Source: an uncultured Candidatus Saccharibacteria bacterium (GTDB lineage Bacteria > Patescibacteriota > Minisyncoccia > Minisyncoccales > UBA5738). From it: DNA of 64,000 nucleotides. Shown piece after piece: positions 14,432-38,853 of the stretch; position 1 is the stretch's first letter; the number at the start of each line of letters is the position of its first letter. The notes under the pieces were generated by a model, which searched no databases, was not told the origin of the DNA, and saw only the letters and a list, made by a program, of their open reading frames with translations. The translations under genes were made by a program, and so were the position numbers. Location: the NCBI GenBank assembly GCA_964603475.1, contig CAZRVG010000001.1, positions 63,988-127,987 of the forward strand, written 5' to 3'.

Positions 14432-15697
14432 TTATGTTATCTCTCTTTTCCCCGTTACCAATTGCGAAATTAAAAGATCGCGAGTTTTGGCTAAATTTTG
14501 ATTTTTTTCTTGTAACGAAATTATCATATCGAAATACTTTCCAAACAACCCGCTAAATTCATCAAGAATAACTGAATTTGGAATAATAATTTTTATATTC
14601 TTAACTTGTACCGGACTTAAATTTTGTTGCGCTGCTCCGTTAGACATTGCTTCCAATTTTTGCTGAAATTTTTTTTGCCTAAATAGTAAATAAGTAAATT
14701 CTCTATTATTTTTATTCACTAAATCAAGTTTTGCAACTCGCTGATTCAACACATGATCTAACCCGTATACAAGACAAATACGCCCAACATTTCCCGTCAG
14801 TGAAAGTAATATGTCGCCATTTTTTAACACACATGCCGCAGGTAATTTTGCGGGCAACTCGTCAATAAACGAATCAAAATTTAATACAAATTTACCATCA
14901 TGAACATTTTTAATTGTAACAATTTTATATTTACCAATTTTTTTGTATGTTGAACCCTTAAACGGAAAGCCTGAAATTACATTTGCGATTTCTCCAATAG
15001 ACCCGATACTCCACCCTTCAGGGATCATACCGCATTCCTTGCCGGAATCAACCATTTTCACTTTTTCGTGCCCGGGGAATTTAAACTTCACGAACCATTC
15101 GTTATAAAGCCTCTGCGCCATTTCCTCCAAAATCCTGATCCGCTTCTCGTTATTTTCAATCAAATCATCATATGCCGAAAGTACTTCCGCAATTTTGTCT
15201 TGTTCTTTTACTTCCGGCACGTTAAGAGTTATGGTCTTAATTTTATTAAGGCTTAAATTATCTTGAGCGGTTCCTTTTGCGGTTTTCTGAAAACTTTTTT
15301 TTGCGTGATCAAGTGCATATTTAACAAATTTAACGTTCGATTTTTTCGAATCGGCAATAAAGCCAACTACACTATCGGGAAAACACGCCGGATAAGATAA
15401 AATTGCATTTTCAGCAATATTGGCCGCAATTGTTATGCAAAGCGTCTCCGCAGGCCAAAGCTTACTCTGCTTTAATCCGGTTTCATTATAAGTTTGTTCG
15501 TGTTTTGTAACATAAAAATTTGAATGTTTAATATCGGAAGTTTGAATAAATGGATAATCGCCTCCATACAAAAAACTATCGTTGCGCGGTCGATGTTTTG
15601 ATTTCCCACGAGCAACGGTTCCAAGTTTGAATAATGATTGTTTTGTCCAAGTCGCCATATCTAAATTTTTATTCTTTTTAACATAAAACCTTGACAA
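14432..15697 (-). CDS. hsdS: Type I restriction-modification specificity subunit (two target recognition domains)
   Basis: duplicated TRD architecture, conserved central and C-terminal coiled regions (LEEMAQRLYNEWFVKF; ISQLVTGK). Confidence 0.85.
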   Translation of the reverse strand: MSRFYVKKNKNLDMATWTKQSLFKLGTVARGKSKHRPRNDSFLYGGDYPFIQTSDIKHSNFYVTKHEQTYNETGLKQSKLWPAETLCITIAANIAENAILSYPACFPDSVVGFIADSKKSNVKFVKYALDHAKKSFQKTAKGTAQDNLSLNKIKTITLNVPEVKEQDKIAEVLSAYDDLIENNEKRIRILEEMAQRLYNEWFVKFKFPGHEKVKMVDSGKECGMIPEGWSIGSIGEIANVISGFPFKGSTYKKIGKYKIVTIKNVHDGKFVLNFDSFIDELPAKLPAACVLKNGDILLSLTGNVGRICLVYGLDHVLNQRVAKLDLVNKNNREFTYLLFRQKKFQQKLEAMSNGAAQQNLSPVQVKNIKIIIPNSVILDEFSGLFGKYFDMIISLQEKNQNLAKTRDLLISQLVTGKREIT

Positions 15698-15832
15698 TAT
15701 ACCAGCTATGCTGTTATTCTTTATGTAGAAGCATGCAATAATAACTTTGAGCGCGCTTCGGTGCTCCCCCGGAGAATCCGGGGCTTCAGCCGGGGAATTC
15801 CACGCTCTCAGATCGCTGCTTCAACAAAGATC

Positions 15833-16525
15833 TCAATCATCGGATTGAGTTTTTTGTTTTTTGCGGTTGCTTATCCAATAATCTTTGAACAATTCTTTTT
15901 CAGCGACAATATTATTTTTTAAAATTCCATAAAATTCATCGCCGCTTTCCTTTTTGTTCAGATAAGCCGCGACCGCGCCGGCGAGCCAATCAACAATTTG
16001 AATATTCGGATATTGTTTGGAATCCACCGTTTGGATTCTAACTTGCGCTCCTTTTACTAAATTTGGCAACAATCGCGCGGTTAAATTATCAATAAATTCC
16101 TGCTTGCCCACGCCCTTTAATCTTCTTTGATCGCAAAATATATGCAATAAAGATTCTTGCAAGGGCAAATATAAATCCAAAGTTTCCCCAACCAATTGGG
16201 TGTAAAGCAATCCGCTTTTTAACGACTTTTTTCCTCTGAATTCCAGCGGTATATTTTGACAGTCAAGATAGGTGTAAAATATGCGCACATCCATTTTCGC
16301 AATCTGGTGCAAAGTTCGCAATTTTAAATTTTTATCAATTCCCGAATCGGAAAACTTAATTTCCGATTGTTTGCGCATTGCTTTTGGGAATTTTAGCGCG
16401 CACCAAGATTTGAATTTCTTATGAGTTCTTTTGGGTTCGCCAACTGTAAATGACGCGATTAAAAAATAGCGTTCATTTGTCTTTTTATTGAATTGTCCGC
16501 TTTCATCTAAAAAGATATAAGCCAT
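15833..16525 (-). CDS. DUF3800 family protein inserted in the hsd operon
   Basis: N-terminal AYIFLDESG motif typical of DUF3800; between hsdM and hsdS. Confidence 0.6.
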   Translation of the reverse strand: MAYIFLDESGQFNKKTNERYFLIASFTVGEPKRTHKKFKSWCALKFPKAMRKQSEIKFSDSGIDKNLKLRTLHQIAKMDVRIFYTYLDCQNIPLEFRGKKSLKSGLLYTQLVGETLDLYLPLQESLLHIFCDQRRLKGVGKQEFIDNLTARLLPNLVKGAQVRIQTVDSKQYPNIQIVDWLAGAVAAYLNKKESGDEFYGILKNNIVAEKELFKDYWISNRKKQKTQSDD

Positions 16526-16557: not shown

Positions 16558-17613
16558 TCACAAAATTTTTTTCCAATCGTCTTGAATTTTATTTTCAAGT
16601 TCGTGCGCATCTTTAGTTAATGCAATAAACTCACTCATTAATTCTTTCATCCGCGTTTCAAAATCCGCGTTGTCAATTTCATTTTCAATAATCTCCACAT
16701 ACCTCCCCGGATTCAGCGAATAATCATTGGCCCGAATTTCTTCCAATGTCGCCATCTTGCACCGGCCTTTTATATCTTTGTATTTGCCCGCATTTTCCTC
16801 GCCGCGATACCGTCGCACAATTCCCGCGATTTCTTGGATTTGGTCATCCGTCCATTCGCTGTGAGCGCGATCAATTGGCGTGAATATATCCTGCGCGTTG
16901 ATAAACAATACTTTCTTTTCTCTATTTGTTCCGCGCTTGCCTTTGTCAAAAAACCATAACATGCAAGAAAGCGTGGCGTTCATAAACATATTCGTGCCAA
17001 CGGAAATAATCACATCGATAAAGCCGGCTTCAACCATTTTTTGACGAATCTCTTTTTCTTTATTCCCGGCATCGCTGGCGCTATTTGCCATAACAAAACC
17101 TGCGCGCCCTTTGTCATTCAACGCGCTGGCAAACATCTGCATCCAAAGGTAGTTGGCATTGCTGATTTCGTTTTTGCCGGTAAGCGGCAGGCCGTAATTA
17201 TAACGCTGGTCGCCTTGCAGGCGCGCCGGATCAATTACTATTTGCCCGTTTTTATCCTTTCCTTTCACATTAAAGGGAGGGTTTGCAAGGACGAAATCAA
17301 ATTGTCCGATGCTTTTATGTAAATCTTCATAAAACGAATTAGCCAGTTCAATTTTTCCCGAAAGCCCGTGAATCGCCAGATTCATTTTGGAAACTTTCAA
17401 ATTGCTTTCTCCTTTTTCCTGGCCATAAATATGGATTTCTTCCATTATCGGCCGATAGGTTTTGTGCTTGGCGATAAATTTTGCGGATTGGACGAACATC
17501 CCGCCCGAACCGCAAGCCGGATCATAAATCTTGCCGTGATAGGGCTCTATAACTTCCGCTAAAAGCTTAACGATTGATTGCGGCGTGAAAAATTCTCCGC
17601 CAACCCGATATTT
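16558..17613 (-). pseudogene. hsdM: Type I RM N6-adenine methyltransferase subunit, N-terminally truncated (HsdM_N domain absent; first ATG lies after SAM-binding motif I)
   Basis: reading frame open from 17613 encodes ...GGEFFTPQSIVKLLAEVIEPYHGKIYDPACGSGG-MFVQ... then NPPF catalytic motif; in-frame stop at 17614-17616; only about 200 nt to the tRNA, so no room for the 150-aa N-domain. Confidence 0.7.
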
Positions 17614-19615: not shown

Positions 19616-19939
19616 CTATTTTTTGGCAAACTCCTCGGCCGCCGCGCGCACATAATAAACTCCGGAAATGTTGACTCTTTCATAATTTTGCGATTGCGCG
19701 ACTTGGTACTCGTTGAAATTTTCCAGTGAATTTGATTGCGAAAGCCGGTTTTCCAAAACATTATTCTCCGAGGAAACATCAGCCAACTGCTTTTCAAGTC
19801 CGGCCAAAAGCGAAGTTTTGTGAATGTGCGAGTTGAGCTGAAAAACCGCTCCGCTCAAAAGCAAGACCCCCGCCAGCGAGGCAAACAGCCAAAAGTTTTT
19901 TATTTCTCTTTTTATTTTTGATATTCTTCTTTTGCTCAT
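19616..19939 (-). CDS. ftsL: Cell division protein FtsL-like (single TM plus coiled coil)
   Basis: position between rsmH and ftsI, TM helix plus leucine-zipper-like region. Confidence 0.55.
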   Translation of the reverse strand: MSKRRISKIKREIKNFWLFASLAGVLLLSGAVFQLNSHIHKTSLLAGLEKQLADVSSENNVLENRLSQSNSLENFNEYQVAQSQNYERVNISGVYYVRAAAEEFAKK

Positions 19940-19984
19940 ATTTATCTTTTGTTTAAATGTTTAAATGATTATATGATTAAATGA

Positions 19985-20854
19985 TTAAATGACCCTTTCT
20001 ATCGCGCGCAATTTTGCCGAAGCCGCGCGCGAATTGGCGTCAATTTCCTTGGTCGAAGGAACAATCGGCTTTTTAAACAGCAGTTTTGCCCTGCCGGATT
20101 CGGCCAGCTTTTTAAATTCTTCTTTTACGACCTTATCCTCCAAAGAATGGAAAGATATCGCCGCCATTCGCCCCCCCGCGTTCAAAATTTCAAAACCGGA
20201 CACAATCCCCCGCCTGATATTTTCAAACTCATCGTTAACCGCGACGCGCAACGCCTGGAAAATTCTCGCCCGCATGCTTCGAATACGCGGATAAGGCAGA
20301 CCAAAAATTATTCGCGCCAGATCCCGGGTGGTCGTTATTTCTTTTTTGCTTCTGGCATTCACAATCGCGCGGGCAATTTTTTTGGCGCTTTTTTCTTGGC
20401 CGAAATTTTTAAAAATTTCGGTCAAATCCTTCTCGGAGCATCGGTTAATCATTTTTGCCGCGTCAACCCGCGAATCGCTATCATATCTCATATCCAGCGG
20501 TTCGTCTTTGGCAAAAGAAAACCCTTTGCCGCTTTCATCCAAATGCCATGACGACATCCCCAAATCCAGCAATATTCCTTTTATGTTTTCAAAGTCGCGC
20601 GATCGCGCGATATCGGCAATATTGGCATAGGAATCGTTAACAATCGCCAATCTCGGATTTGCCCTCGCTTCTTCGGGCAAAGACAATATGTTTTCTTTGT
20701 CCCGCTCAATCCCCAACACTCTTCCTTTGGGCGCGGTTTTTTCCAAAATCGCCAAACTGTGCCCGCCGCGGCCAAAAGTGCAATCAATAAAGTTCTCATT
20801 GGGTTTGGGATCAAGCGCGGCAATCGTTTCGTTTAATAAAACCGGAATATGCAC
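19985..20854 (-). CDS. rsmH: 16S rRNA m4C1402 methyltransferase RsmH (MraW)
   Basis: MHIPVLLNE...DCTFGRGGHS...DLGMSS signature. Confidence 0.9.
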   Translation of the reverse strand: MHIPVLLNETIAALDPKPNENFIDCTFGRGGHSLAILEKTAPKGRVLGIERDKENILSLPEEARANPRLAIVNDSYANIADIARSRDFENIKGILLDLGMSSWHLDESGKGFSFAKDEPLDMRYDSDSRVDAAKMINRCSEKDLTEIFKNFGQEKSAKKIARAIVNARSKKEITTTRDLARIIFGLPYPRIRSMRARIFQALRVAVNDEFENIRRGIVSGFEILNAGGRMAAISFHSLEDKVVKEEFKKLAESGRAKLLFKKPIVPSTKEIDANSRAASAKLRAIERVI

Positions 20855-23704: not shown

Positions 23705-24910
23705 CTAGCCAAACATTAGCCATTCGGGACGGAAAATCAGCAGAAGACCGATGGCCAGCATCAAAACGCCGCCGATCAAATGCGACGCTTTTTGATATTT
23801 GGTGGTAATACCGGCCATCTTCAAAGTAATCATGGCCGCAAAGAACACAAACAAATCGTCGGTCATAAAAACCAAAATATAAAGCCCGATATAGGCATAA
23901 TATTGCCAAGCCGCCAAGCCGCTCATTGCCAATATCTGCGTGAAAATCACCGGCAATCCCGCCGAACAAATCAATTCCACAAGATTGACCGCGAACGCCA
24001 GCAAAATAATTCCCCCCAGCGCCAGATAAAAATTGTTTTGCAGGGTAATGTTTTTCAGCCGCTCAAAAACCTTTTTTCTTTTGGGATCGGCAGCATTAGC
24101 GCAAACCGCGGCTTTTTTTGAAAAATAGGCTCGTAAATTATGAATTCCGCCACCGATCGCCACCGCGCCCACGGCAATACGCACCCACAAAATAAAGCCA
24201 ATAAACAAAAGCAAGTTTAGCCATGCCACCATAAATGTGAAATAAACCAAAGACGACGCGACAATAAAAGCAATCCCCAAGATCCACATCCGCTTGCGGT
24301 CTTGCATTCCCAAAAGCAAACTGATCAAAAACAACAGCGTCCACATCGCGCACGGATTAAATCCGTCCAGCGCGCCCAGAATCACGGTGATCGCCGGCAA
24401 AGATAAATTTTTGATTGAAACTTGGCCAAAAAACGGAATATTAACATTTTCGGGAATTTCTTTTTTGTCATCTTTCCCGCAGGTTCCGTTTTCGGGAGGC
24501 GGGCTTTGCGGATTGATAATTCGCGCGGCAATATCAAGACACCCGTCATTAATCGCTTTTACCGCCGCTTCTTCAATCGCATTTCCCGTGGAATCCGCGT
24601 CATACCAGCCGATAAAATACTTATCGCCCACCAAGGTAAAAGGCACCCCCGCGATTTCAACACCCAATTCATTGCCGATATCAATCAAGATTTGGCGATT
24701 GCCGGCATTTTGCCAAACCTCAAAATCCCGCACCGCGATTTCAGGATAGCGCGCCTGCAATTCGGCCAAAAATTCCTTTTCGTGCTCGCAATGCGGACAC
24801 CCCTGCCCCCAAAAAAAATAGACATTCACCGGATTTTGCGCCAAAGCCGCCGCCGGCATAACCGCCGCGACAATTGTTAATAATATTGAAAATAAAACTT
24901 TTCTAAACAT
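23705..24910 (-). CDS. Thioredoxin-fold (CPHC) domain fused to CcdA/DsbD-like transmembrane thiol-disulfide transporter
   Basis: signal peptide, WGQGCPHCEHEK, then polytopic domain with GFNPCAMW and CSAGLPV cysteines; start set at MFRKVL because ORF open to 25024 runs through repeat element A. Confidence 0.6.
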   Translation of the reverse strand: MFRKVLFSILLTIVAAVMPAAALAQNPVNVYFFWGQGCPHCEHEKEFLAELQARYPEIAVRDFEVWQNAGNRQILIDIGNELGVEIAGVPFTLVGDKYFIGWYDADSTGNAIEEAAVKAINDGCLDIAARIINPQSPPPENGTCGKDDKKEIPENVNIPFFGQVSIKNLSLPAITVILGALDGFNPCAMWTLLFLISLLLGMQDRKRMWILGIAFIVASSLVYFTFMVAWLNLLLFIGFILWVRIAVGAVAIGGGIHNLRAYFSKKAAVCANAADPKRKKVFERLKNITLQNNFYLALGGIILLAFAVNLVELICSAGLPVIFTQILAMSGLAAWQYYAYIGLYILVFMTDDLFVFFAAMITLKMAGITTKYQKASHLIGGVLMLAIGLLLIFRPEWLMFG

Positions 24911-24997
24911 AAACGCGAATTTATCTATTATTCGTCCATTTCCCATTATGCCAACTTTCCCCCTTCCTGTAAACCCCGGCAATTTGCCCACAAAAAA

Positions 24998-25150
24998 ACA
25001 CCAACATTCTGCCCTGTCCCGCACCGTGATTTGCCTTTATATTTTATGCTTTAGCATGGCAAATCTCTGGTGCAGGAAGAATGTTGGAATGTTTGCTAAT
25101 CTGATTCTTTAATTCATTTGCCAGAGGACAAAATTCAGATAGCCGGCAAA
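24998..25150. mobile_element. MITE-like inverted-repeat element, family 1, copy A (with conserved 55-bp 3' extension)
   Basis: ccaacattct...agaatgttggaatgtt terminal inverted repeats, internal caccgtgatttgcc / ggcaaatc and atgc-ttta-gcat hairpins; near-identical to copies at 28649-28803 and 39097-39195. Confidence 0.65.
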
Positions 25151-25172
25151 TATTATTATGCAATAAAATTTA

Positions 25173-27317
25173 TTATTCTCCGGAGATAATCTTGTTGATT
25201 TTTTCGCGGGTTAATCGGCCGACATATCCCGATCCATGGCTCAAACCAATGGGTGATAAAATTTCACCGGCATATTTTTCTTGGAATTGAATCACCGCGG
25301 TTTTGGTGATACCGCCAAAATCGCCCGTTGGCACCACGGCAAGGTCTTGTGATTTGAGAACTTCCTGCAAGCATTTTACTTGTGTGTTTCCTCTAATGCC
25401 ATAAAACAAGTTTTCCGTAATCATCCCGCATGAAAATTCGCTGCCTTCACCGGTTAATATTTGCAATTGCCTTGTCAAAGATTCAATCAAATTTTTAATT
25501 TGGTTAATTTTATTGATAAGTTGTTCGCGCGTTATCCCTGCATTATCAGCAAACTCACCAATATTCGCGATATTTGAATTAGCGGTTTGGGGCGCACCCT
25601 TCGTCTGTTGAGAAACGATTTCTACGGCAACGCTATCCGTTGCGGATCCCGCCGAATTGGAACAGGTGATAATATATTCTTTTGGACTACCGATGGTTAT
25701 TCTCATTGCCCCGCTCTTCGTCTTGTTCCCCGACCAACTGCCGGAAGCTTGGCAAATATCAGCATTGGTTGAATTCCAAAGCAGTGTCACGGGTTCGCCA
25801 GCGTTTATCAAGGCTTTTTTTTGATAGCCATCGGCCGTGATATCCACTGTCGGTAAATTGACACCAATATTATTGGTAGTGTCGGTATTGTTATTACCAT
25901 TGATGTTATTATTGTCGCTTACGCTAATATTACTATCGCTAACAATACAAACTCCGTTTGAACAAGCTTCTCCGGTCAAGCATTTTGAATTGTCATCAGC
26001 CCATCCTGTACCCAATAAATTACAAACCTTGCAACCCGAAACCGCCATCGGAACGCAGGCAAAGCAAATTCCGTTTGAACATGTCTGCCCCGATGGACAA
26101 GCGATAATCGTCGACCATTCAACACAAGCGTCATTTTCATAATTTTTGCAAAACTGATAGCCGTTGCCGTTGCAATGCTTCAAGCTGCCGGTAAGGCATA
26201 TTCCCGATGAACAGGCCTTTTCATCCGGGCAAAGAGTAATTTGCGACCACTCCAAACAAGAGTCGGAATCGTAGTTGCCGCAGGTCTGAAACCCATTGCC
26301 GCTACACTGCTTGATGCCCGCAGAAGAACACTCATTAACACATTGCGCAACGCATTGTCCGCTGGAACAGATTTGCCCCGAAGCGCAACTGCCGCAGTTT
26401 AATGTGCCGCCACATCCATTGGAAGCTGTACCACAATTATAGTTCAAAGAAGCACAGGTTTTGGGGACGCAATTGGCAACGCATTGATTTGAGGAACAAG
26501 AATATCCTGTCGCGCAATTTCCGCAATTTAACGCATTACCGCACCCATCGGAAATCGTACCGCAGGCATAACCCAAGGAAGCACAGGTTTTGGGAATACA
26601 GTCGGCAATACATTTATTGGCAACGCAGGTATATCCCGTAGCACAAGTGCCGCAACTTAGCGTGCCGCCACATCCATTGGAAGCTGTACCACAATTATAG
26701 TTCAAAGAAGCACAGGTTTTGGGGACGCAATTGGCAACGCATTGATTTGAGGAACAAGAATATCCTGTCGCGCAATTTCCGCAATTTAACGCATTACCGC
26801 ACCCATCGGAAATCGTACCGCAGGCATAACCCAAGGAAGCACAGGTTTTGGGAACGCATGAATTGACCACATTGATCGATAGATTTGGAGTTTTGTCACC
26901 GAACCACGCCACTCCGTCTTGCACCATTCGCCATTGGAAATTATAAACGCCGGCGACCAAGGGCGCCGTAACGTTAAAGGTGAAGGTTTTGTTTGTGTTG
27001 AATTTAATTATCTCGGAACTGCTCAAATAAACACGGTTAACCCCCCACGTTTTATTATCTTGCGGATTTTGCGAGCCAAGACGACATTTTTTCGCCTCGC
27101 TCCAATAAAGCGCTTGTTCCCATCCCGGTTGTCCCCATCCAGCTATGCTAGGATTTTTCATCGTTATTGAAACCGAATACGTCTTACCCGCATCCATTTT
27201 TGAAGGCACCGACTGAGAAACAAAGTTTGCATACATTGCAAACCCCGCCGCAGGAAAACAAACTATCCCGCAAAAAATTAATAACAGTGATGCCAATTGA
27301 TTTTTTGATTTTTCCAT
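25173..27317 (-). CDS. Secreted cysteine-repeat surface protein with C-terminal peptidoglycan-binding (PG_binding_1-like) domain
   Basis: signal peptide; five or more 37-aa modules CVPKTCASLGYxCGTxSxGCGxxLxCGxCATGYxCxxNxCVAx; Ig-like domain; C-terminal GDFGGITKTAVIQFQEKYAG motif. Confidence 0.6.
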   Translation of the reverse strand: MEKSKNQLASLLLIFCGIVCFPAAGFAMYANFVSQSVPSKMDAGKTYSVSITMKNPSIAGWGQPGWEQALYWSEAKKCRLGSQNPQDNKTWGVNRVYLSSSEIIKFNTNKTFTFNVTAPLVAGVYNFQWRMVQDGVAWFGDKTPNLSINVVNSCVPKTCASLGYACGTISDGCGNALNCGNCATGYSCSSNQCVANCVPKTCASLNYNCGTASNGCGGTLSCGTCATGYTCVANKCIADCIPKTCASLGYACGTISDGCGNALNCGNCATGYSCSSNQCVANCVPKTCASLNYNCGTASNGCGGTLNCGSCASGQICSSGQCVAQCVNECSSAGIKQCSGNGFQTCGNYDSDSCLEWSQITLCPDEKACSSGICLTGSLKHCNGNGYQFCKNYENDACVEWSTIIACPSGQTCSNGICFACVPMAVSGCKVCNLLGTGWADDNSKCLTGEACSNGVCIVSDSNISVSDNNNINGNNNTDTTNNIGVNLPTVDITADGYQKKALINAGEPVTLLWNSTNADICQASGSWSGNKTKSGAMRITIGSPKEYIITCSNSAGSATDSVAVEIVSQQTKGAPQTANSNIANIGEFADNAGITREQLINKINQIKNLIESLTRQLQILTGEGSEFSCGMITENLFYGIRGNTQVKCLQEVLKSQDLAVVPTGDFGGITKTAVIQFQEKYAGEILSPIGLSHGSGYVGRLTREKINKIISGE
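26403..26856. repeat. Intragenic tandem duplication: two identical segments of about 195 bp with a 259-bp period inside the Cys-repeat gene
   Basis: gtgccgccacatccattggaagctgtacc...aagcacaggttttggga occurs at 26403-26597 and 26662-26856. Confidence 0.85.
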
Positions 27318-27465
27318 TTTTATTTTGTTTTTTATTATCTTATTTTTATTATAACTTTTCTCGTTTTACAATCAAATAAAAAATCCGCCTCATGGCTTTG
27401 CCCGCACAAACAATTTTATTTAATGACAGTATTAAACTATTCTATTATTTTACCTCCTCCGTTCA

Positions 27466-27501
27466 AGATCTGGTGGCAGAATGTTGGAATGTTTGCTAAT
27501 C
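27466..27501. mobile_element. Family 1 element, copy B (right-end fragment only)
   Basis: tctggtggcagaatgttggaatgtttgctaatc matches right end of copies A and C. Confidence 0.55.
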
Positions 27502-28629
27502 GTTATACAATGATTCCAGAAAGCGAAAGGCCGTGGGAGGGGCAAACCAAATATATTTTAAATTGGACAATGTGTCGGTGATATCAAAATCTTTTTTTGC
27601 TTCGGGATTGAATTTGGGCGGTTTGAGATCATTTTTTAAAAAGTTTATTGTCATTCCCATCTCGTCAAAAAACGACTCGCGGCTGGTCCACACGCATTCC
27701 ATTCCGCCAAAATAACAATCAATGGGAAAAAGGAAATAGCGGTCAAAAGCAATGCCCAAGCGATGAAAAATTTCGGTTGATTTTTTAAATTCTTTGCTTT
27801 TTTTGCCAAATCGCGCCATTGCCGCTTTATCCATTCGCACCATTTCCTCGTAGCCGGCAAGATTTGGATCAAATTTTTGAAAAATTCCCCAAATCGCGCG
27901 AAAAACCGGATCCATGCCAAAAAAATCATCTTTCCCTTTTCTTTGATGACTAAAAAGCCAGTCAAGGCAGGCATATAATTCAGCGGTCATTTTGACGAAT
28001 TTTTCCTCCCCCAAATTTATGCCGGAATTTAAAATCACCTGCGCCGGCGCGGCATGGAAAAACAAATTAAAATATCGGTCAAAATCACTGTTGAATTTTT
28101 TCACCACTCTGCCAAATTGCGCGCTGATATCCAAAAAATCAATGAACGCGGCAAACTCGCAATCAAAATTAGGCGCCACAGATTTTTTTTGCTTGCCCTC
28201 CCGCAGGTTTTTCAATCCCATTTCAAAAACGCCGCCGCCCGATTCTTGCAATTGCTTTCGGGAAAAATACAGCGGAAACACCACCCATTTTTCATTTTCG
28301 TCTTTTTGCAATTTCACCGAAAAAAAATCTCGCCCCAAGTCAAGGTCGGGATAAAGCGCCGCCAATTCCTGGCGCGAAGTGGCACCGTCAAAATGTTGAG
28401 AATCGCCCTCATTGAGCCACGCGGTTTGCAGCCATTTGCGAAAAATGCGGCTTAATATCCCGCTTTTATCCAAAAGCGCGATATCTTCATCGGTTAAAGA
28501 AACGCGATTGGGATCGTTTGCCAAATCGGGAGAAAATTTTTCCACTTCCATGAACAATAAAATGGCAAACATTTCACACATCTCATACTCATTTCGCTCC
28601 CAAAATTCCTCGCGCTTGATATAAGCCAT
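27496..28629 (-). CDS. Hypothetical protein (377 aa, no recognisable domain) bracketed by family 1 elements B and C
   Basis: long ORF with good coding character; no motif recognised. Confidence 0.5.
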   Translation of the reverse strand: MAYIKREEFWERNEYEMCEMFAILLFMEVEKFSPDLANDPNRVSLTDEDIALLDKSGILSRIFRKWLQTAWLNEGDSQHFDGATSRQELAALYPDLDLGRDFFSVKLQKDENEKWVVFPLYFSRKQLQESGGGVFEMGLKNLREGKQKKSVAPNFDCEFAAFIDFLDISAQFGRVVKKFNSDFDRYFNLFFHAAPAQVILNSGINLGEEKFVKMTAELYACLDWLFSHQRKGKDDFFGMDPVFRAIWGIFQKFDPNLAGYEEMVRMDKAAMARFGKKSKEFKKSTEIFHRLGIAFDRYFLFPIDCYFGGMECVWTSRESFFDEMGMTINFLKNDLKPPKFNPEAKKDFDITDTLSNLKYIWFAPPTAFRFLESLYND

Positions 28630-28648
28630 AATTTTGAAATTATCACCG

Positions 28649-28803
28649 ACATTCCAACATTCTGATTAGCCGCGCGTCGTGATTTGCCTTTGTGTTTTAT
28701 GCTTTAGCACGGCAAATCTCTGATGCGCGAATAATGTTGGAATGTTTGCTATTCCGATTCTTTAATTCATTTGCCAGAGAACAAAATTCAGATAGCCGGC
28801 AAA
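28649..28803. mobile_element. MITE-like element, family 1, copy C (with 55-bp extension, overlaps TspO 3' end)
   Basis: acattccaacattct...ataatgttggaatgtt, extension tgctattccgattctttaattcatttgccagagaacaaaattcagatagccggcaaa. Confidence 0.65.
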
Positions 28804-29307
28804 AGTTACCCACGCGATGTAGGGTAAAAGCAGATATGCCGCGGGTTTTGAAACGCGCCAAAAGCTTGCAACCGTCCATGCAATCGCCGCCCACAAAACC
28901 AGCAATTCAAAAAACGCCAACCCGGGAGATTTTAGCCCGAAGAATATCACCGACCAAAAAACGTTTAAAACCAGCTGGGCGGCAAAAATGGATATGGCGC
29001 CCCGCTTGCGCCAAGGGTCAAAAGAAATTTTTTGCAAAAGCCTCTCCCACGCCGTCCCGATTTTCCCTTGAACCGATTCTTCGGCTTCCTCTTCTTTTTC
29101 CCAAACCAAATACAGGGCAAACCCCATCAAAAGATATAGAATCGTCCACACCGTGCCGATAACCTCGCCCGAAGGCGTCCACGAGGGTTTGGCAAGCGCT
29201 TGATACCAACCGCCCACCGACGACGCCGTGGCCAATCCGCCAATCGCGCCCGCCGCCTGGCAAACCAAAATTGAAACAATCAATTTAAAAATATTTCTCT
29301 TTTTCAT
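28762..29307 (-). CDS. tspO: TspO/MBR family tryptophan-rich sensory protein
   Basis: five TM helices with conserved Trp-rich motifs (GGWYQ...KPSWTP...WTILY...FFGLKS..LLLPYIAW), plus an acidic loop insertion. Confidence 0.8.
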   Translation of the reverse strand: MKKRNIFKLIVSILVCQAAGAIGGLATASSVGGWYQALAKPSWTPSGEVIGTVWTILYLLMGFALYLVWEKEEEAEESVQGKIGTAWERLLQKISFDPWRKRGAISIFAAQLVLNVFWSVIFFGLKSPGLAFFELLVLWAAIAWTVASFWRVSKPAAYLLLPYIAWVTFAGYLNFVLWQMN

Positions 29308-29466
29308 AATTTGTTATTTTATTTCTTCTTACAGGTAGCTTGATTTTAATTCTTTTTAACTTTTTTATCAATTTCCTCGCGATTCCGACCCGCAACTATC
29401 CGCCATATTCCATATGGAATATATGAATAAAAAACAAGCTGGCAAAACCCAATCTTTTGAAATTTT

Positions 29467-29869: not shown

Positions 29870-30109
29870 ATGTATTACGTTTACATTCTGCAAAGTCAAA
29901 AAGATAATAGTTATTATGTCGGCTCAACTAATGACTTAAAAAGAAGATTAAACGAGCATAACAATGGCGGAAAAAAATTTACTACAATAAAGCGACCATA
30001 CACGATTACATGGTATTGTGCCTTTGGAAGCAAAAAACGAGCTTTAGAATTTGAAAAATATCTAAAACAAGGATCGGGGCTCGCATTTGCGAGGAAAAGA
30101 TTGGTTTAA
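29870..30109 (+). CDS. GIY-YIG nuclease superfamily protein (UPF0213-like), adjacent to tRNA-Lys
   Basis: YYVYILQS...YYVGSTNDLKRRLNEHN GIY-YIG core. Confidence 0.75.
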   Translation: MYYVYILQSQKDNSYYVGSTNDLKRRLNEHNNGGKKFTTIKRPYTITWYCAFGSKKRALEFEKYLKQGSGLAFARKRLV

Positions 30110-30157: not shown

Positions 30158-31267
30158 TTACAATCCTTCTCCGCGTAATTGTTCCAAGAGCTCTTTTTGT
30201 TTTTTGGTGAGTTTTTTGGGGATGGCGATTTCGGTTTGGATATACATATTGCCGCGGCCAAAGCTGTTGAATCTGCGGATTCCTTTGCCGCTCACGCGGA
30301 AAATTTTGCCCGATTCGGTGCCGGAGGGCACTTTGAGCAGAATGTCTTTGCCGTCAATCGTGGGCACGTCAATCTCGCCGCCCAATGCCGCGAGCGAAAG
30401 CCCGATATCGCGCGCCACAAACAAGTCATCGCCTTTTCTTTCAAACACAGGATGAGCTTTTAGAAACACCCGCACGTACAAATCTCCGGTTTTGCCGCCT
30501 TTTTTGCCGGCTTCGCCTTTGCCTTCCAATTTGATTACCTGATTATTGTCAACTCCGGCGGGAATTTCCACCGCGATAGCTTCCTCGGTTTTAACGCGTC
30601 CTTCACCATGGCACACATTGCACGGCTTTTCCGGCCGGTATCCCTCGCCTTTGCATTCGGGGCACACCACGTACTGGGTAAACGACCCCAAAAAAGTTTT
30701 TTTAACTTGCTGAACTTGCCCCGTGCCGCGGCAAGAAAAACATTCTTTTATTTTCGTTTGCGGTTCGGCGCCCGATCCGTCACAGCGCGGGCAAACCGCC
30801 TGCTTTTGGATTTTGAACTCTTTTTTAATTCCCGTAAACGCCTCCTCCAAAGTAATTTCGGCATCCACGCGAATATCGCGCCCTTTTTTATGATCGCGCC
30901 GCCGCCGCGTTTGGCCGCCGCCAAAACCAAACATCTCTTGCATTATATCGCCCAAATCCTCAAACTGCACGTCAAATTCCGCGCCGGGCCGGCCCCAGAA
31001 CCAGCCGTCCTGCCCCGCTTGAGCGCCGCCAAAACCGCCAAACCCTCCGGCGCCGGAATTGTTAAACGCGTTGCCGAATTGATCATATTGGCTTCGCTTT
31101 TGCTTATCCGAAAGGATTTGGTAGGCCTCGTTGACCTCCTTGAATTTTTCCGCGTCGCCCCCCTTGTCGGGATGGTATTTGTGCGCCATGGCGCGATAGG
31201 CTTTTTTTATCTCATCGGCGCTCGCGGACTTCTGCACTCCCAAAATTTTGTAATAATCCTTACTCAT
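30158..31267 (-). CDS. dnaJ: Chaperone DnaJ
   Basis: J-domain HPD, G/F region, four CxxCxGxG zinc-finger repeats, C-terminal domains. Confidence 0.9.
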
Positions 31268-31390
31268 ACACTCAGTTTCCAGTTTTCAGTTTTCAGTTTT
31301 CAATAAATTTTCATTGGTCATTGAATCATTGAACATTCAATGAAAATTGATAATTGAAAAATGAAAATTTTGAAACCAAAAATTCAAACT
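31268..31390. promoter_or_regulatory. Intergenic palindrome plus heptamer-repeat element (family 2) upstream of dnaJ
   Basis: cagttttcagttttcagttttcaataaattttcattg...cattcaatgaaaattgataattgaaaa. Confidence 0.6.
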
Positions 31391-33356: not shown

Positions 33357-33419
33357 AATTTTATATGATTTATTATATTTATACTTTTTTATTTTTTGCA
33401 AATCTTTTAATTACTGGAA

Positions 33420-33560
33420 GCTTTTAGTCCATTGAAATTTTCAGTTTTCATTGAATTTTCAATATAACAATTACCAAACATAATTCAGCATTTATGTTTA
33501 GATAATTGGCAGAATAATCATTCATTGAAAACTGGAAACTGATAATTGAAAACTGTTTCC
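33420..33560. promoter_or_regulatory. Family 2 intergenic element upstream of dnaK
   Basis: attgaaattttcagttttcattgaattttcaat...core...attcattgaaaactggaaactgataattgaaaactg. Confidence 0.6.
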
Positions 33561-34783: not shown

Positions 34784-34839
34784 ATAATCCCTTTGCTTTC
34801 TTTTTATTTCCCGCCGCGCTTGCGCGGTTTTTTAATACC

Positions 34840-34980
34840 TCATTAGTTTTCAGTTTCCAGTTTTCAGTTTCCAATGAATGGCCATTTTGCCAATTATCAA
34901 ACAAATTACCAAACTTCTGTTTGAAAAATGAAACATTGAAAACTCAATGAAAACTGATAATTGAAAACTGAAAACTTTGT
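34840..34980. promoter_or_regulatory. Family 2 intergenic element between grpE and the DUF3467 gene
   Basis: cagtttccagttttcagtttccaatgaatggcc...cattgaaaactcaatgaaaactgataattgaaaactgaaaact. Confidence 0.6.
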
Positions 34981-35460
34981 TTATTTGGCAACTTTGACCT
35001 TCGCGGGACGCAACAAGCATCCGTCCATCATATATCCTTTTTGCGCTTCCTCAATAATCGTTCCCGATTCTTGGTCTTCGCAATCCACTGCTTGCACCAC
35101 TTCGTGACATTCGGGATTGAAATTTTTTCCCACCGATTCAATTGCCTTGACGCCATTGGTTCTCAAAAAATCTTCCAATTGCTTTTTAATCATCAAAAGT
35201 CCCTTGACGTGTTCGTTGTTTTGCAAATCCTCGGGCAGATTTTTTTGCGCCAGCTCCAGATTATCAATCATCGGCAAAAGACTGAAAATAAATCCCTGCC
35301 GGCCGTATTTGGCGAATTCCTCCATTCTTTGACTTTCTTCTTTTTTGTAGTTGATCAAATCCGCCTTGGCGCGCTTCCAACCATCCAAATACTCTTGCGC
35401 TTGCCTTTTGGCATCTTCCAATTCCGTTAATTTTTTATCTTTTTGCTGTTTTTCCATCAT
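34981..35460 (-). CDS. grpE: Nucleotide exchange factor GrpE
   Basis: coiled-coil N-terminus, conserved GrpE core (LLPMIDNLE...GTIIEEAQKGYMM). Confidence 0.85.
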   Translation of the reverse strand: MMEKQQKDKKLTELEDAKRQAQEYLDGWKRAKADLINYKKEESQRMEEFAKYGRQGFIFSLLPMIDNLELAQKNLPEDLQNNEHVKGLLMIKKQLEDFLRTNGVKAIESVGKNFNPECHEVVQAVDCEDQESGTIIEEAQKGYMMDGCLLRPAKVKVAK

Positions 35461-35600
35461 TTAATTTTTCAGTTTTCAATTTTCAATTTTCATTGAATTT
35501 TCAATGAATCAATTTTCAAACAAAATTCAGCATTTCTGTTTGGCTAATTGGCAAAATGATCATTCATTGAAAACTGAAAACTGGTAATTGAAAATTGTTT
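35461..35600. promoter_or_regulatory. Family 2 intergenic element upstream of grpE (same core as the hrcA copy, opposite orientation)
   Basis: core ttcaaacaaaattcagcatttctgtttggctaattggcaaaatgatcattc flanked by cagttttcaattttcaattttcattgaa / ttcattgaaaactgaaaactg. Confidence 0.65.
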
Positions 35601-36319
35601 TATATATTTTCAAACATTTTCAACGCTTCGTTGATCAATTCGATGTTTTTATCATAGGCCATTCTTTTGGGACCCACGATGGAAAACACGGTTTCATTTT
35701 CGCGGTCGGGACGGCAAATAAAGGTTATCGCGGCAAATTCATCGGCTTTGTCAAAACAATTCTCTTTTCCGATGTAAATATCCATTCCTTCATTCATCGG
35801 CTTGCGAGTTTTAACGCTGTCTTCCAAATAACCCAGATAGCCGATGAAATTTTCCACCAAATCCCTTTCGCCAAATTCGGGCTTTTGCAATAAGTCCTCC
35901 CAACCGTCTTTTATCATCAAATCCTGCCGGCACAAATATCCCAGCACCAGCGACGATGACGCCGCCGCCAAGCTGTGCGCCAAACTGTTGGCAATTTTGA
36001 AAATATCCTCAAAATCATCTTCAAGCCCCTCAAAGCCAAAATCAAGTTTTCCCGACGGGTTCCGCTGGCTTTTATCTTTCAAAACCTCGTCCACAAACAG
36101 GCGGTAGCCTCTATCGGTGGGAATTCGCCCCGCGGAAGTGTGCGGCTGGGTCAAAAAACCGTCATCGGTGAGCTTTTGCATTTCAATGCGAATGCTTGCC
36201 GGACAGATGCCAAAATCATACCTTTCCCCCAGATATTGCGAAGACACCGGCCGCGCCGATTCCACATATTCCCTGATTATCGTGTCCAATATTGTCCTCT
36301 GCCGCTCGGAAATCTCCAT
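35600..36319 (-). CDS. hrcA: Heat-inducible transcription repressor HrcA (short form)
   Basis: N-terminal winged helix ERQRTILDTIIREYVESARPVSSQ...SPATIRNEM-like ICPASIRIEMQKL. Confidence 0.8.
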   Translation of the reverse strand: MEISERQRTILDTIIREYVESARPVSSQYLGERYDFGICPASIRIEMQKLTDDGFLTQPHTSAGRIPTDRGYRLFVDEVLKDKSQRNPSGKLDFGFEGLEDDFEDIFKIANSLAHSLAAASSSLVLGYLCRQDLMIKDGWEDLLQKPEFGERDLVENFIGYLGYLEDSVKTRKPMNEGMDIYIGKENCFDKADEFAAITFICRPDRENETVFSIVGPKRMAYDKNIELINEALKMFENI

Positions 36320-36470
36320 AAATCACTAATTTTCAATTACCAGTTTTCAGTTTTCAATGAATGATCATTTTGTCAATTAGCCAAACAGAAATGCTGAATT
36401 TTGTTTGAAAATTGATTCATTGAAAATTCAATGAAAATTGGCAATTGAAAACTGAAAACTGTTGGTGTTC
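36320..36470. promoter_or_regulatory. Family 2 intergenic element upstream of hrcA
   Basis: reverse complement of the 35461-35600 copy core. Confidence 0.65.
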
Positions 36471-38742: not shown

Positions 38743-38853
38743 TCCATTCTTCGACTTTTTTAAAGGTGCGAATTGAGCTTGCGGCGCGAAAAATCGCGCG
38801 AAAGGCTCGTTTTGAGATTAAAATAAATTCCCCTTTCCGTCAAGCGTTTTAAC

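Follow-up and report, generated by a model that had tools for sequence, protein, structure and literature searches.

The element that recurs at gene boundaries in the window (the whole 64-kb stretch of DNA analyzed) is a small palindromic intergenic repeat common to related Patescibacteria, and it is not an integron-like cassette recombination site. A repeated hairpin-forming inverted repeat is genuinely present in the window and, on balance, we consider it to represent a family of small palindromic intergenic repeats that had not been annotated before, similar in type to REP/BIME, ERIC, or Correia repeats, in a Patescibacteria clade. Searches of Rfam and the literature yielded nothing corresponding to the element. 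Neighboring copies seem to recombine, and they seem to have helped relocate one surface-protein gene, which encodes the 714-aa Cys-repeat protein.

Anatomy and copies of the element

The copies in the window and their flanking modules are as follows.

24994 to 25099, minus strand: copy A, long form; the 3' arm has a 2-nt deletion, and T7 comes next on the transcript strand
About 27464 to 27501, minus strand: copy B, half copy; consists of the tail, the 5' arm in transcript sense, and ~12 nt from the long interior, beyond which the sequence is unrelated
28648 to 28752, minus strand: copy C, long form; arms of 15-16 nt around a 67-nt nested hairpin, plus a GCTA tail
39097 to 39202, minus strand: copy D, long form, downstream of the DUF4325 gene; UUUUUGUU comes next on the transcript strand
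40330 to 40368, minus strand: copy E, short form; perfect 16-bp stem, 4-nt loop, and CCGCTA tail
39203 to 39268, minus strand: module upstream of D, with GGCATTGCC, ATATTCCATATGGAATAT (palindrome, 39216-39233), and GTGAG..CTCAC (small GC hairpin)
40369 to 40437, minus strand: module upstream of E, with GGCATTGCC, a half-palindrome ATATGGAATAT in degenerate form, and a GC hairpin resembling a terminator (40409-40437), after which comes TTGTTTG
29405 to 29422, no strand assigned: solitary companion palindrome ATATTCCATATGGAATAT, upstream of TspO

The right arm plus tail, the 19-mer AATGTTGGAATGTYYGCTA, occurs five times in the window and on the plus strand only (25079, 27479, 28732, 39182, and 40349). 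The arm AACATTCCAACATTCT has eight matches in the window at two or fewer mismatches, versus 0.09 expected by chance. All genes flanking these copies lie on the minus strand. Together with the hairpin folds, these results bear out the initial annotation of a repeated inverted-repeat element at gene boundaries that is oriented with transcription. Its description of the element as ~100 bp with 16-bp terminal inverted repeats applies to A, C, and D, which form nested hairpins of ~100 nt (24996-25092, dG -44.5 kcal/mol, z -6.05; 28648-28746, dG -40.1 kcal/mol, z -4.8; and 39097-39196, dG -52.4 kcal/mol, z -7.6, respectively). It does not apply to B, which lacks the second arm and does not fold (z +1.0). 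E is a bare 16-bp stem (hairpin 40330-40363).

In its basic form, the unit is a 32-44-bp perfect palindrome ([TTAGCGG]ACATTCCAACATTCT-NN-AGAATGTTGGAATGT[CCGCTAA]). Each arm consists of two 8-mers, RGAATGTY, and the palindrome holds four GGAATGT heptamers arranged 2+2. In the long form, found for some copies in this genome and its nearest relatives, a second hairpin of 67 nt is nested in the loop. A conserved tail, YYGCTA, is present on one side of the palindrome only. We found ~28 distinct copies with nearly invariant arms (~22 short and 6 long) in the window, four sister lineages, and more distant MAGs (UBA6102 and others); the short form alone was found in the more distant genomes. The whole UBA6102 MAG has two exact matches, and the 64-kb window has five copies. 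The initial annotation regarded copy E as an excision footprint; since the short form is the commonest and occurs alone in distant genomes, copy E is instead the basic form of the family.

The fold is conserved: 92.5% of cells are paired, versus 31-45% in slid controls, and six pairs changed on both sides, a number reached by 3 of 500 shuffles. Compensatory changes were thus shown to maintain the pairing. Mismatches on the transcript strand were G-U in 14 cases versus A-C in six, a weak excess.

Most copies start 4-37 nt past a stop codon, and the tail lies within ~37 nt of the stop of a co-oriented gene at ~9 of the ~12 distinct short-form loci in other genomes. However, one long copy in the sister lineage S2 sits between divergent genes with its interior inverted; therefore, the co-orientation of the element with transcription has exceptions.

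Copies A and D have U-tracts on their 3' side, and copy A resembles an intrinsic terminator because T7 comes next. We give practically no credence to the view that the copies are ordinary, unrelated Rho-independent terminators that are merely alike, without shared ends. It is refuted by the recurrence, ~28 times across many genomes, of one 30-nt arm sequence, and a convincing U-tract was present in only approximately one quarter of the copies. With this fraction, and with a separate canonical terminator hairpin already adjoining both D and E, the element cannot function generally as a terminator.

The arms are almost invariant between species in which dnaJ is only 75-83% identical. Such constancy suggests that the arms are recognized by a specific conserved factor; a passive hairpin fails to account for it. 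Element copies also accompany other small palindromes (ATATTCCATATGGAATAT and GTATTCTGCAGAATAC) and GC-rich terminator hairpins, forming mosaics. ATATTCCATATGGAATAT has two exact copies in the window, versus 0.08 expected; it also occurs upstream of TspO in the sister S3 (L092 6044), and in L050 and L088 it lies close to short hairpins. The palindromes, ATATTCCATATGGAATAT and GTATTCTGCAGAATAC included, may be DNA binding sites, namely, operators or loading sites of a conserved DNA-binding protein in the clade, for example, one involved in global regulation, the nucleoid, or segregation. The near-invariance of the arm while adjacent spacers diverge, the co-occurrence in the same spacers of a palindrome family with an xATTCC-AA-xATTCT architecture, and the small number and clustering of the copies are in line with this proposal. 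We nevertheless consider it unlikely: the copies are mostly located past stop codons and not at promoters, the center tolerates the nested 67-nt hairpin with the site kept, and the heptamers, spaced at 8 bp, are out of step with the helical repeat. Moreover, the preservation of interior pairing by compensatory changes argues for a folded single strand.

Gene boundaries in the window and in sister genomes

The genes next to the copies are listed below.

23705 to 24910, minus strand: thioredoxin-like and CcdA/DsbD-like membrane protein (Trx-CcdA), 401 aa; function read from the translation only
25173 to 27317, minus strand: 714-aa Cys-repeat protein; weak peptidoglycan-binding and Ig-like matches, internal 129-nt tandem repeats
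27496 to 28629, minus strand: 377-aa protein with no assigned function; downstream of TspO in all five species
28762 to 29307, minus strand: TspO/MBR gene, 181 aa (Pfam PF03073, E 7e-49)
39322 to 40183, minus strand: 196-aa gene and DUF4325 (STAS-like) gene; E on the upstream side and D downstream

The start of Trx-CcdA is ATG 24910 and not GTG 25024, which falls inside copy A; scanned as a 439-aa ORF from GTG 25024, it matched no Pfam family at E <= 0.01. The 377-aa protein had no match in Pfam or PADLOC. Only 42 homologues of it were retrieved and, where named by organism, all are labeled Patescibacteria or Parcubacteria, and its AF2 model (pLDDT 88, pTM 0.89) had no fold match in the PDB. 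GC and GC3 are native in all four array genes.

The element had been placed within a few nucleotides of each stop. This is accurate for the 377-aa gene, the TAG stop of which falls inside the tail of copy B, whereas the TspO stop is 15 nt from C and the 714-aa stop ~80 nt from A. Similarly, the next start had been placed ~25 to 120 nt past the element, which is correct for A (~85-90 nt), but not for C (18 nt), which lies between the TspO stop (28762) and the 377-aa ATG (28629), or for B (~160 nt).

Orthologues of the TspO, 377-aa, Trx-CcdA, and 714-aa genes (50-81% aa identity) occupy the same dnaJ-to-pyrH interval in the sisters. Those of TspO (60-65% identical, in the same position in S1-S4), the 377-aa gene (70-73%), and Trx-CcdA (73-81%, just upstream of pyrH in S2, S3, and S4) are syntenic, with identities near those of dnaJ and pyrH. 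The element is present at the same junctions as in the window in S1 (L094), S2 (L096), and S3 (L092). In contrast, S4 (L075) has TspO, 377-aa, and Trx-CcdA in the same order with no element copy in 21 kb. These syntenic orthologues, with or without the element, do not agree with the independent accessory gene cassettes proposed initially. The Cys-repeat slot and the presence of the 196-aa pair do vary between the sisters, but the order of the other three genes is kept in S4.

The form of the element differs between species at a given site. At the TspO/377 junction, it is long in the window and short in S3 (L092 6698-6729, which keeps the downstream flank of copy C, GGAATGTCGGTGATAATTT..ATG), with no element in S4. 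The corresponding junction between the 377 homologue and t', a fragment of the TspO 3' end described below, has the long form in S1 and the short form in S2. At the 3' junction of the 377-aa gene, the half copy of the window corresponds to intact short hairpins in S3 (L092 7886-7917) and S2 (L096 4022-4053). The D site is long in the window and S1 (L084 3221-3317) and short in S2 (L088 4770-4801), while the E site is short in the window and S1 (L084 2037-2068) and long with an inverted interior in S2 (L088 about 3590-3690); the two forms are thus swapped between the orthologous D and E sites in S2. The 196-aa/DUF4325 pair, missing from S4 and S6, is situated between type IV pilin genes and purB/purC and is bracketed by elements in S1 and S2 as well. 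Flanking of this gene pair by D and E in two further species marks the sites as old and stable in position.

An active MITE, with the 16-bp arms as terminal inverted repeats for a transposase encoded elsewhere, the long form as the element, and short forms as internally deleted derivatives or footprints, would account for several of these features. The element is small, has inverted-repeat ends and a non-coding interior, exists in several copies, and shows a long/short dimorphism like Correia and ERIC. Sites are occupied at the TspO/377 (window and S3) or t'/377 (S1 and S2) junction and empty in S4, and an IS91-type Zn_Tnp remnant adjoins the S1 (L094) array. However, no target-site duplication was found (25 of 29 tested matches have 0 nt at the palindrome boundary), none of the ~58 ORFs scanned in the window is a transposase, and viral contigs had no match to the element. 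The predominance of the short form and the single-sided tail are also contrary to this explanation. Furthermore, copies are retained at orthologous sites across species at ~70-80% protein identity; therefore, movement of the element is rare. We regard an active MITE as improbable.

Relocation of the Cys-repeat gene

The following feature lies between the 714-aa stop and copy A.

25109 to 25155, minus strand: t', pseudo-fragment duplicated from the 3' end of TspO (FAGYLNFVLWQMN* with stop)

Copies A and C are 87% identical over 150-155 nt. A 55-bp extension shared by the two had been assigned to the element; it is the last ~13 codons and stop of TspO (FAGYLNFVLWQMN*), genuine at C and duplicated at A. 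The Cys-repeat gene, the TspO 3' fragment, and the element follow each other in the same succession in S1 (L094 about 4015-4172) and S2 (L096 about 2745-2868). The repeats formed by the TspO end and t' measure 150 nt (87%) in the window, ~55 nt (96%) in S1, and 59 nt (85%) in S2.

The Cys-repeat orthologues in S1 and S2 are full-length, 50-62% identical, and located between TspO and the 377 homologue. In the window, S3, and S4, the 377-aa gene directly follows TspO; in S1 and S2, the Cys-repeat gene precedes it. Thus, the slot of the 714-aa gene in the window differs from that in these two sisters, and its junctions fall at element copies. This comparison showed that the Cys-repeat gene changed position with respect to the 377-aa gene, along with the TspO fragment and element that trail it, in accordance with the earlier suggestion that blocks were duplicated or moved.

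The upstream modules of D and E are ~90% identical, and their common flank of ~60 nt is unlike that of A and C. D- and E-type copies share flanks within each genome in three species. Flanking sequence common to neighboring copies in one genome points to gene conversion or block duplication. In one plausible route among several fitting scenarios, the starting gene order would have been TspO, Cys gene, t', E1, 377, and E2. A break within palindrome E2 may have been repaired by copying the Cys gene, t', and the 5' part of E1, which would leave the half copy B and a hybrid copy A. The original Cys copy would then have been lost via recombination between the TspO 3' end and t'.

Comparison with known systems

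The array had been likened to integron cassettes. Integron attC sites and CALINs share with the element a hairpin site that is imperfectly conserved, with conserved ends and a variable center, 3' of single ORFs and in one orientation. The palindromes may be sites of a recombinase encoded elsewhere (integron attC-like, Xer/pdif-module-like, or HUH/RAYT-like) that excises gene-plus-element units and inserts them again. Consistent with such a system, the elements follow single genes or gene pairs in one orientation, sibling copies lie on both sides of variable units (the 714-aa gene between B and A, and the 196-aa/DUF4325 pair between E and D), the Cys-repeat slot varies by species, and some sisters have and others lack the 196-aa pair, the Trx gene, and further genes. 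Within the arm, GTTGGAA matches the integron core GTTRRRY at six of seven positions. However, we consider this explanation very unlikely. A Pfam scan of ~58 ORFs across the window found no tyrosine, serine, DDE, or HUH recombinase or transposase and no RAYT, in agreement with the initial remark that no integrase is nearby, and the array has no IntI, attI, or Pc. Unlike attC, the stems are perfect, without extrahelical bases, bulges, or an unpaired central spacer. Junction B is a broken half element and not a regenerated site, and the mobile block carries the 47-nt TspO pseudo-fragment, which argues for homology-driven or illegitimate duplication and not precise site-specific exchange; we found no evidence for precise exchange. 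Unlike integron cassettes, most of the genes have their own promoter-like sites (found after A, B, and E). The pdif modules of Acinetobacter plasmids (XerC/D) also place gene modules between short palindromic sites with the recombinase not nearby, and they are the closest precedent for this explanation. However, a pdif site is an imperfect palindrome (11-6-11) in which the XerC and XerD arms are distinct, with alternating orientation, whereas the element is 15-2-15, perfect, and chromosomal.

Palindromic intergenic repeats are closer. Like REP/BIME of Enterobacteria and Pseudomonas, the element comprises palindromes of ~30-40 nt in transcribed spacers 3' of genes, forms mosaics with other small motifs, and has a position conserved among relatives; REP/BIME are thought to stabilize mRNA 3' ends or attenuate transcription and are recombination substrates. 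REPs are imperfect and GC-rich, have a species-specific sequence, a 5' GTAG tetranucleotide, and hundreds of copies, and are tied to RAYT (Y1 HUH) transposases. In contrast, the element has perfect AT-rich stems and a sequence common to several species, with no RAYT in the window, and its copy number seems low.

ERIC and the Correia element of Neisseria resemble the element in their length (~100-150 nt), inverted-repeat ends, long and short classes differing by an internal block, location in transcribed intergenic regions, often at 3' ends, and association with local rearrangements; the sequence of ERIC is also conserved across related species. Correia elements are characterized by target duplications (TA), an IHF site, and a copy number above 100, and ERIC is an imperfect 127-bp palindrome. 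However, the short form of the present element consists of the two arms only, is predominant, and is probably ancestral; moreover, it has no target-site duplication, unlike Correia, and its sequence is unrelated to ERIC and Correia, as is its host phylum, Patescibacteria. ERIC and Correia hairpins are processed by RNase III or E (PMC10969869). The SPRITE, BOX, and RUP repeats of Streptococcus pneumoniae are small terminator-like or palindromic intergenic repeats that are bunched and insert into one another (PMC10969869). Their clustering parallels the nested long form and mosaic modules, but they differ in sequence and host, and BOX is modular (A, B, and C boxes) and not made of nested palindromes.

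Possible roles

We infer a role at the RNA level purely from sequence. In mRNA, the element would fold into a very stable hairpin, which could protect or define 3' ends, attenuate read-through (U-tracts of A and D), or serve as a site for a double-strand RNase; each of these effects would insulate adjacent transcription units in part. Analogous RNase III/E processing, terminator-like function, clustering, and 3'-UTR location have been described for Correia, ERIC, and SPRITE elements in a review of MITEs (PMC10969869). At the DNA level, the repeated palindromes may offer short stretches of homology and fragile sites, thereby driving gene conversion and rearrangement locally. The family probably acts in these Patescibacteria both as an RNA hairpin 3' of genes and as a homology patch for local gene conversion and rearrangement.

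Copies of the element in the window

The arm of the inverted-repeat element, AACATTCCAACATTCT, had eight matches with two or fewer mismatches in the window versus 0.09 expected. The right arm with its tail, AATGTTGGAATGTYYGCTA, was found five times, on the + strand in every case:

25079, + strand, right arm and tail of copy A
27479, + strand, right arm and tail of copy B
28732, + strand, right arm and tail of copy C
39182, + strand, right arm and tail of copy D
40349, + strand, right arm and tail of copy E

Since the minus strand holds nearly all genes between approximately 6 and 59 kb, each copy reads TAGC(R)(R)ACATTCCAACATTCT...AGAATGTTGGAATGT on the transcript. Copies A, C, and D are approximately 100 nt long, with the arm pair placed around a 67–68-nt interior that is itself a hairpin ending in a small apical stem (AUGCUAAAGCAU). 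For these three copies, RNA folding predicts -40 to -52 kcal/mol (z -4.8 to -7.6). Copy E consists of both arms only and forms a perfect 16-bp stem (16/16 paired) with a 4-nt loop. Copy B comprises the tail, the 5' arm, and approximately 12 nt of the long-form interior, after which similarity ends, and it has no fold (z +1.0). B is thus only a half copy. The repeated element reported in the initial annotation is real, but its description was imprecise.

On the transcript strand, U7 follows A and U5GUU follows D, E has no U-tract, and the start codon of the 377-aa gene lies 18 nt beyond C. A U-tract after the stem, as in an intrinsic terminator, is present in A, D, and a few copies elsewhere, and is absent from C, E, and most others. 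The element had no Rfam match at gathering thresholds in the whole window or at E <= 1 in both element regions; the output contained only tRNAs, DUF3800-V, and chance miRNA-like matches on hairpins.

Structural conservation of the hairpin

Six distinct long forms from three species were aligned, and 92.5% of the cells were paired. Changes on both sides were found in six pairs, a number reached in 3 of 500 shuffles, and controls with the partner slid by 1–3 columns were 31–45% paired. The level of pairing and the two-sided changes, relative to the shuffled and slid controls, show that the hairpin is maintained, whether as RNA, single-stranded DNA, or a cruciform. Among non-Watson-Crick cells on the transcript strand, G-U (14) exceeded A-C (6); this excess is not significant and leans only weakly to a role as RNA.

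Sequences flanking the hairpins

The stretch common to A and C is 150–155 nt long (87% identity). Its part beyond the hairpin corresponds to the last ~13 codons and the stop of TspO (TTTGCCGGCTATCTGAATTTTGT.CTCTGGCAAATGAATTAA, FAGYLNFVLWQMN*) and is alignable with TspO 3' ends from four sister genomes. At C, this sequence is the genuine TspO end. Its counterpart at A, hereafter t', is as follows:

25109–25155, between the stop of the 714-aa gene and hairpin A, duplicated pseudo-fragment of the TspO 3' end

D and E carry a different upstream-side module of ~60 nt (~90% identity between them), in which a GC-rich terminator-like hairpin is accompanied by the palindrome ATATTCCATATGGAATAT and by GGCATTGCC. 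The same palindrome also occurs alone at 29405, upstream of TspO.

Array genes in sister genomes

The dnaJ-to-pyrH interval was located in relatives with homologues of dnaJ and of the 377-aa protein as anchors, and identities were obtained by local tblastn. Cys714 is the 714-aa Cys-repeat gene and Trx the Trx-CcdA gene; S1–S4 are sister genomes, with locus numbers in brackets.

Gene order in the dnaJ-to-pyrH interval
Window: dnaJ / GIY-YIG, tRNA-Lys / TspO - C - 377 - B - Cys714 - t'A - Trx / pyrH
S4 (L075; dnaJ 78%): dnaJ / 830-aa Cys-repeat gene (other strand), tRNA-Lys / TspO (65%) - 378 (71%) - P-type ATPase - Trx (78%) - pyrH (79%)
S3 (L092; dnaJ 79%): dnaJ - MFS - TspO - short hairpin - 377 (70%) - short hairpin - YlbF-like - Trx (81%) - pyrH
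S1 (L094/L095; dnaJ 79%): TspO - Cys-repeat gene (50–62%, full length) - t' + long element - 377 homologue (73%)
S2 (L096): TspO - Cys-repeat gene (50%) - t' + short hairpin - 377 homologue (71%) - short hairpin - Trx (73%) - pyrH

For TspO, the 377-aa gene, and Trx-CcdA, S2–S4 have syntenic orthologues whose identities resemble those of dnaJ and pyrH, and the GC and GC3 of all four array genes are native. Since the genes diverge like their housekeeping neighbours and have native composition, comparative evidence indicates that all four are long-standing residents of the interval and not recently acquired cassettes. The initial annotation had treated them as movable accessory units; the sisters instead present long-resident orthologues that differ in order only once.

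That sole real difference, as judged from these genomes, is the Cys-repeat gene, which precedes the 377-aa gene in S1 and S2 but follows it in the window. It is followed by t' and an element in all three lineages (window, S1, and S2), and direct repeats of the TspO 3' end bracket it in S1 (~55 nt, 96%) and S2 (59 nt, 85%). The suggestion that blocks containing the element were copied or moved is supported for this one gene, with its t' and element behind it.

At the exact window positions of C and B, S3 has two hairpins; beyond the first, the downstream flank (GGAATGTCGGTGATAATTT..ATG) is also conserved with the window. In S4, the element is absent from all junctions across 21 kb. From their positions, the TspO/377 element and the element at the 3' junction of the 377-aa gene are older than the split between the window lineage and S1–S3. 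On the same comparison, B is what decay or breakage has left of a copy still intact in S2 and S3. In S1, the 377 homologue has pyrH behind it in L095 and an IS91-type remnant in L094. The remnant is a Zn_Tnp fragment of 116 aa (L094 6450–6800) and stands in for the Trx-CcdA gene of the window, S2, S3, and S4.

Further observations were made in this interval. The 714-aa gene contains three tandem 129-nt (43-aa) repeats at 26368–26854 that are up to 95% identical, and the ENA assembly of the same organism breaks within this gene. A 79-aa stand-alone GIY-YIG/T5orf172 ORF (29870–30109, +) of very low GC (0.33; GC3 0.29) occupies the opposite strand in the spacer from dnaJ to tRNA-Lys. At this position, the sisters carry a Cys-repeat gene or an MFS gene, or no gene at all, and the ORF is probably of foreign origin. 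PADLOC returned no defence-system matches for the element-bracketed genes.

Copies D and E around the 196-aa/DUF4325 pair

The 196-aa gene and its DUF4325 partner lie between copies E and D. The protein encoded by the former is one of a very large family in Patescibacteria, in which one member has a HATPase_c_2 match. S1 (L084–87) and S2 (L088–91) have the pair at the same place with the same bracketing elements, after type IV pilin genes and before purB/purC. S4 and S6 lack both the pair and the elements there. S1 resembles the window in having a short upstream and a long downstream copy. S2 has a long upstream copy, whose arms are degenerate and whose interior is inverted, and a short downstream copy. 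The reading of E as an excision footprint is contradicted.

Within each genome, the two bracketing copies share extra flank, on the 5' side in the window and on the 3' side in S1 (~70 nt, 95%) and S2. These shared flanks point to gene conversion or repeated block duplication between neighbouring copies.

The adjacent segment 36700–39050 was compared with L075, L077, L084, and L088. The sisters have purB-purC (plus purE in S2) between hrcA and the type IV pilin cluster, whether or not the latter includes the 196-aa pair. In their place, the window has overlapping 171- and 191-aa ORFs with no Pfam match, an AT-rich, toxin-antitoxin-like DUF4258/DUF2283 pair, and a structured element of ~185 nt. 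Judged by synteny, this segment is a local replacement of the purine genes. The ~185-nt element (38850–39035; also L082 3215–3400 and L081 ~6115–6300) comprises multiple hairpins within a 17-bp closing stem (GTAACCATTCACTGGG / CCCAGTGAATGGTTAC). As RNA, either strand folds with a dG of -85 to -90 kcal/mol (z -6.6 to -7.8), and the element has no Rfam match. It lies just downstream of D and is absent from the orthologous spacer of S1. In sister genome S7, an element with the same closing stem and another interior lies between dnaJ and the Cys-repeat gene of that genome. The ~185-nt element may represent either an sRNA or a second mobile element bounded by TIRs.

The element family beyond the window

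Scans with a 19-mer covered GTDB species genomes and JGI metagenomes. Most matches were due to chance, being in unrelated taxa with the second arm absent; ~17 chance matches were expected in genome_contigs. Approximately 11 distinct loci were genuine, in Patescibacteria MAGs or metagenome contigs including UBA6102, and all were short forms. Since the 19-mer demands a YYGCTA tail and misses copies without one (e.g., the L084 long form), the collection-wide counts are lower bounds. With the sister loci added, there are ~28 distinct copies (~22 short and 6 long), and their arms are almost invariant. Exact 19-mer matches, which would miss diverged copies, numbered two in the UBA6102 MAG and two in AMR_MDS_1835, and the 64 kb of the window has five copies. 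Viral contigs had no matches to the tail-independent short hairpin. We did not find a description of such a repeat family in Patescibacteria (CPR) in the literature.

The arm consists of two 8-mers, RGAATGTY. The central dinucleotide is CA or TG depending on the copy, i.e., the palindrome centre is flipped. The copy at L010 is a perfect 44-nt palindrome, TTAGCGGACATTCC...GGAATGTCCGCTAA, which suggests that the one-sided tail elsewhere is the surviving half of a longer palindrome. Of ~12 distinct foreign loci, ~9 have a co-oriented gene whose stop is no more than ~37 nt from the tail side.

A sister palindrome family has the same 2x2 architecture with ATATTC/GTATTC units (GTATTCCAATATTCTGCAGAATACCGGAATAG; L003, L011, L053, L084, L088, and window 40259–40275). 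Its members are usually 20–30 nt from the main hairpin, in spacers with short hairpins. Hybrid copies with one arm of each palindrome type are known (e.g., L088 4770–4801), suggesting that the two families interconvert.

Other repeats and loci in the window

A far commoner family of AT-rich intergenic palindromes with 7-nt phasing (TTTTCAG/TTTTCAA ... CATTGAA ... TTGAAAA) fills most spacers of the heat-shock operon and several others. Its arms reach 131 nt with 98% complementarity, e.g., 35466–35596 versus 36328–36458 around hrcA.

AT-rich 7-nt-phased palindromes
799–951
5477–5638
31262–31375
33410–33560
34833–34982
35452–35602
36325–36466
51143–51297
53789–53935
54565–54683
56066–56216

Arrays of (A/T)TTATATG / CATATAAT, which are 8-nt phased, tandem -10-box-like octamers, were found in three spacers, at 6257–6342, 19931–20000, and 39261–39322; the interval from the DUF4325 stop to copy D directly holds one of them. 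A DUF3800-V RNA (15727–15823; Rfam RF02964, 69.5 bits) adjoins a DUF3800 protein gene (15833–16525) within a type I restriction-modification operon (HsdR 10658–13786, HsdS 14432–15697, and HsdM 16558–17499). Near the right end of the window, 61610–61721 and 62362–62473 form a 112-nt direct repeat with 100% identity and 752-nt spacing.

Identity of the element

The initial annotation likened the array to integron cassettes. Integron arrays have an adjacent IntI tyrosine recombinase, attI, and the Pc promoter. Their attC sites consist of R''/L''...L'/R' boxes and typically have bulges or extrahelical bases and an unpaired central spacer, whereas the arms of the element pair perfectly, and the attC core GTTRRRY matches the arm sequence GTTGGAA at 6/7 at best, which is weak. 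Integron cassettes are promoterless and variable. In contrast, the array has syntenic orthologues and native composition, and promoter-like sites follow A, B, and E and lie upstream of TspO; three of the four array genes have such a site in front of them. Pfam searches of ~58 ORFs in the 64-kb window, which includes a type I R-M system, the hrcA-grpE-dnaK-dnaJ operon, type IV pilus genes, and housekeeping genes, identified no IntI or other integrase/recombinase, transposase, or HUH or Y1_Tnp-type protein. An integron-like arrangement is not supported, given the lack of an integrase in the window, the perfect stems, and the syntenic orthologues in the sisters.

Like a MITE, the element is non-coding, 32–100 nt long, and bounded by 15–16-bp terminal inverted repeats, with five copies in the window and ~28 overall. 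Target-site duplications were absent, with a 0-nt direct repeat at the exact palindrome boundary in 25 of 29 matches tested. No parent IS with matching ends was found in the window or the fetched loci, and no matching ends were seen at the IS91 Zn_Tnp remnant (L094). The element is absent at the S4 (L075) junctions and kept at the orthologous junctions of S1–S3, which fits both loss by decay and gain by insertion.

The element resembles REP/BIME in being a short palindrome outside genes, in most cases on their 3' side, that forms mosaics with other motifs. However, REP/BIME have a 5' GTAG-type tetranucleotide, whereas the conserved flank of the element is TAGCGG/CCGCTA. They also have a RAYT (Y1 HUH) transposase, for which the 64-kb window has no counterpart. 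The copy number of REP/BIME is tens to hundreds per genome; the five copies in 64 kb and the exact 19-mer counts given above may understate the number here. The CIRCE/HrcA operator, parS, dif, and DNA-uptake sequences were rejected on sequence, spacing, or copy number by comparison with their usual consensus sequences.

Proposed roles and significance

Work on small palindromic repeats has centred on cultivated Proteobacteria and Firmicutes. The element appears to behave like the small palindromic intergenic repeats of other bacteria, namely REP/BIME, ERIC, Correia, and SPRITE (reviewed in PMC10969869). It shares with them a location in transcribed spacers 3' of genes, hairpin formation, long and short classes, mosaics with other small palindromes, positional stability among relatives, and occasional rearrangements. 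On mRNA, the hairpin may protect 3' ends, cause partial termination where a U-tract follows (A and D), or serve as a site for a double-strand RNase. On DNA, the copies may act as short homology and fragile sites.

Copies acting in this manner may have relocated the Cys-repeat gene. The starting order would have been TspO, Cys gene, t', E1, 377, and E2 (E1 and E2 being elements), as in S1 and S2. A break within the palindrome E2 would have been repaired by copying the Cys upstream region, the Cys gene, t', and the 5' part of E1. This repair would have left B as a stranded 5' half and A as a hybrid copy, and the original Cys gene would have been lost through recombination between the TspO end and t'. 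The scenario fits B, t', and A; other routes are possible.

A passive hairpin does not explain why the arms are nearly invariant across species, which suggests a conserved trans-acting partner and hints at a protein or RNase specificity. For this reason, we retain two alternatives. The palindrome may be a DNA- or RNA-binding site. The other is that the palindromes are recombination sites of a module-shuffling system with no linked integrase, in which a host recombinase encoded elsewhere (Xer-like, HUH, or of another kind) would read the invariant 2x2 GGAATGT arms and move gene-plus-element units, such as the Cys-repeat surface-protein gene and the 196-aa/DUF4325 pair, between element-marked slots in variable regions of Patescibacteria. 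We consider recombination sites very improbable. If this reading is true, a phylum with reduced genomes would have a chromosomal counterpart to pdif modules or integron cassettes.

We concluded that the family represents a kind of element known from other bacteria and not so far described in Patescibacteria, and that the array is not a new cassette system. As a compact sequence marker, the family identifies a CPR clade. It also flags transcription-unit boundaries in genomes with almost no experimental annotation and marks rearrangement hot spots of surface-protein and other niche genes. A conserved partner that would recognise the arms could be found by phylogenetic profiling.
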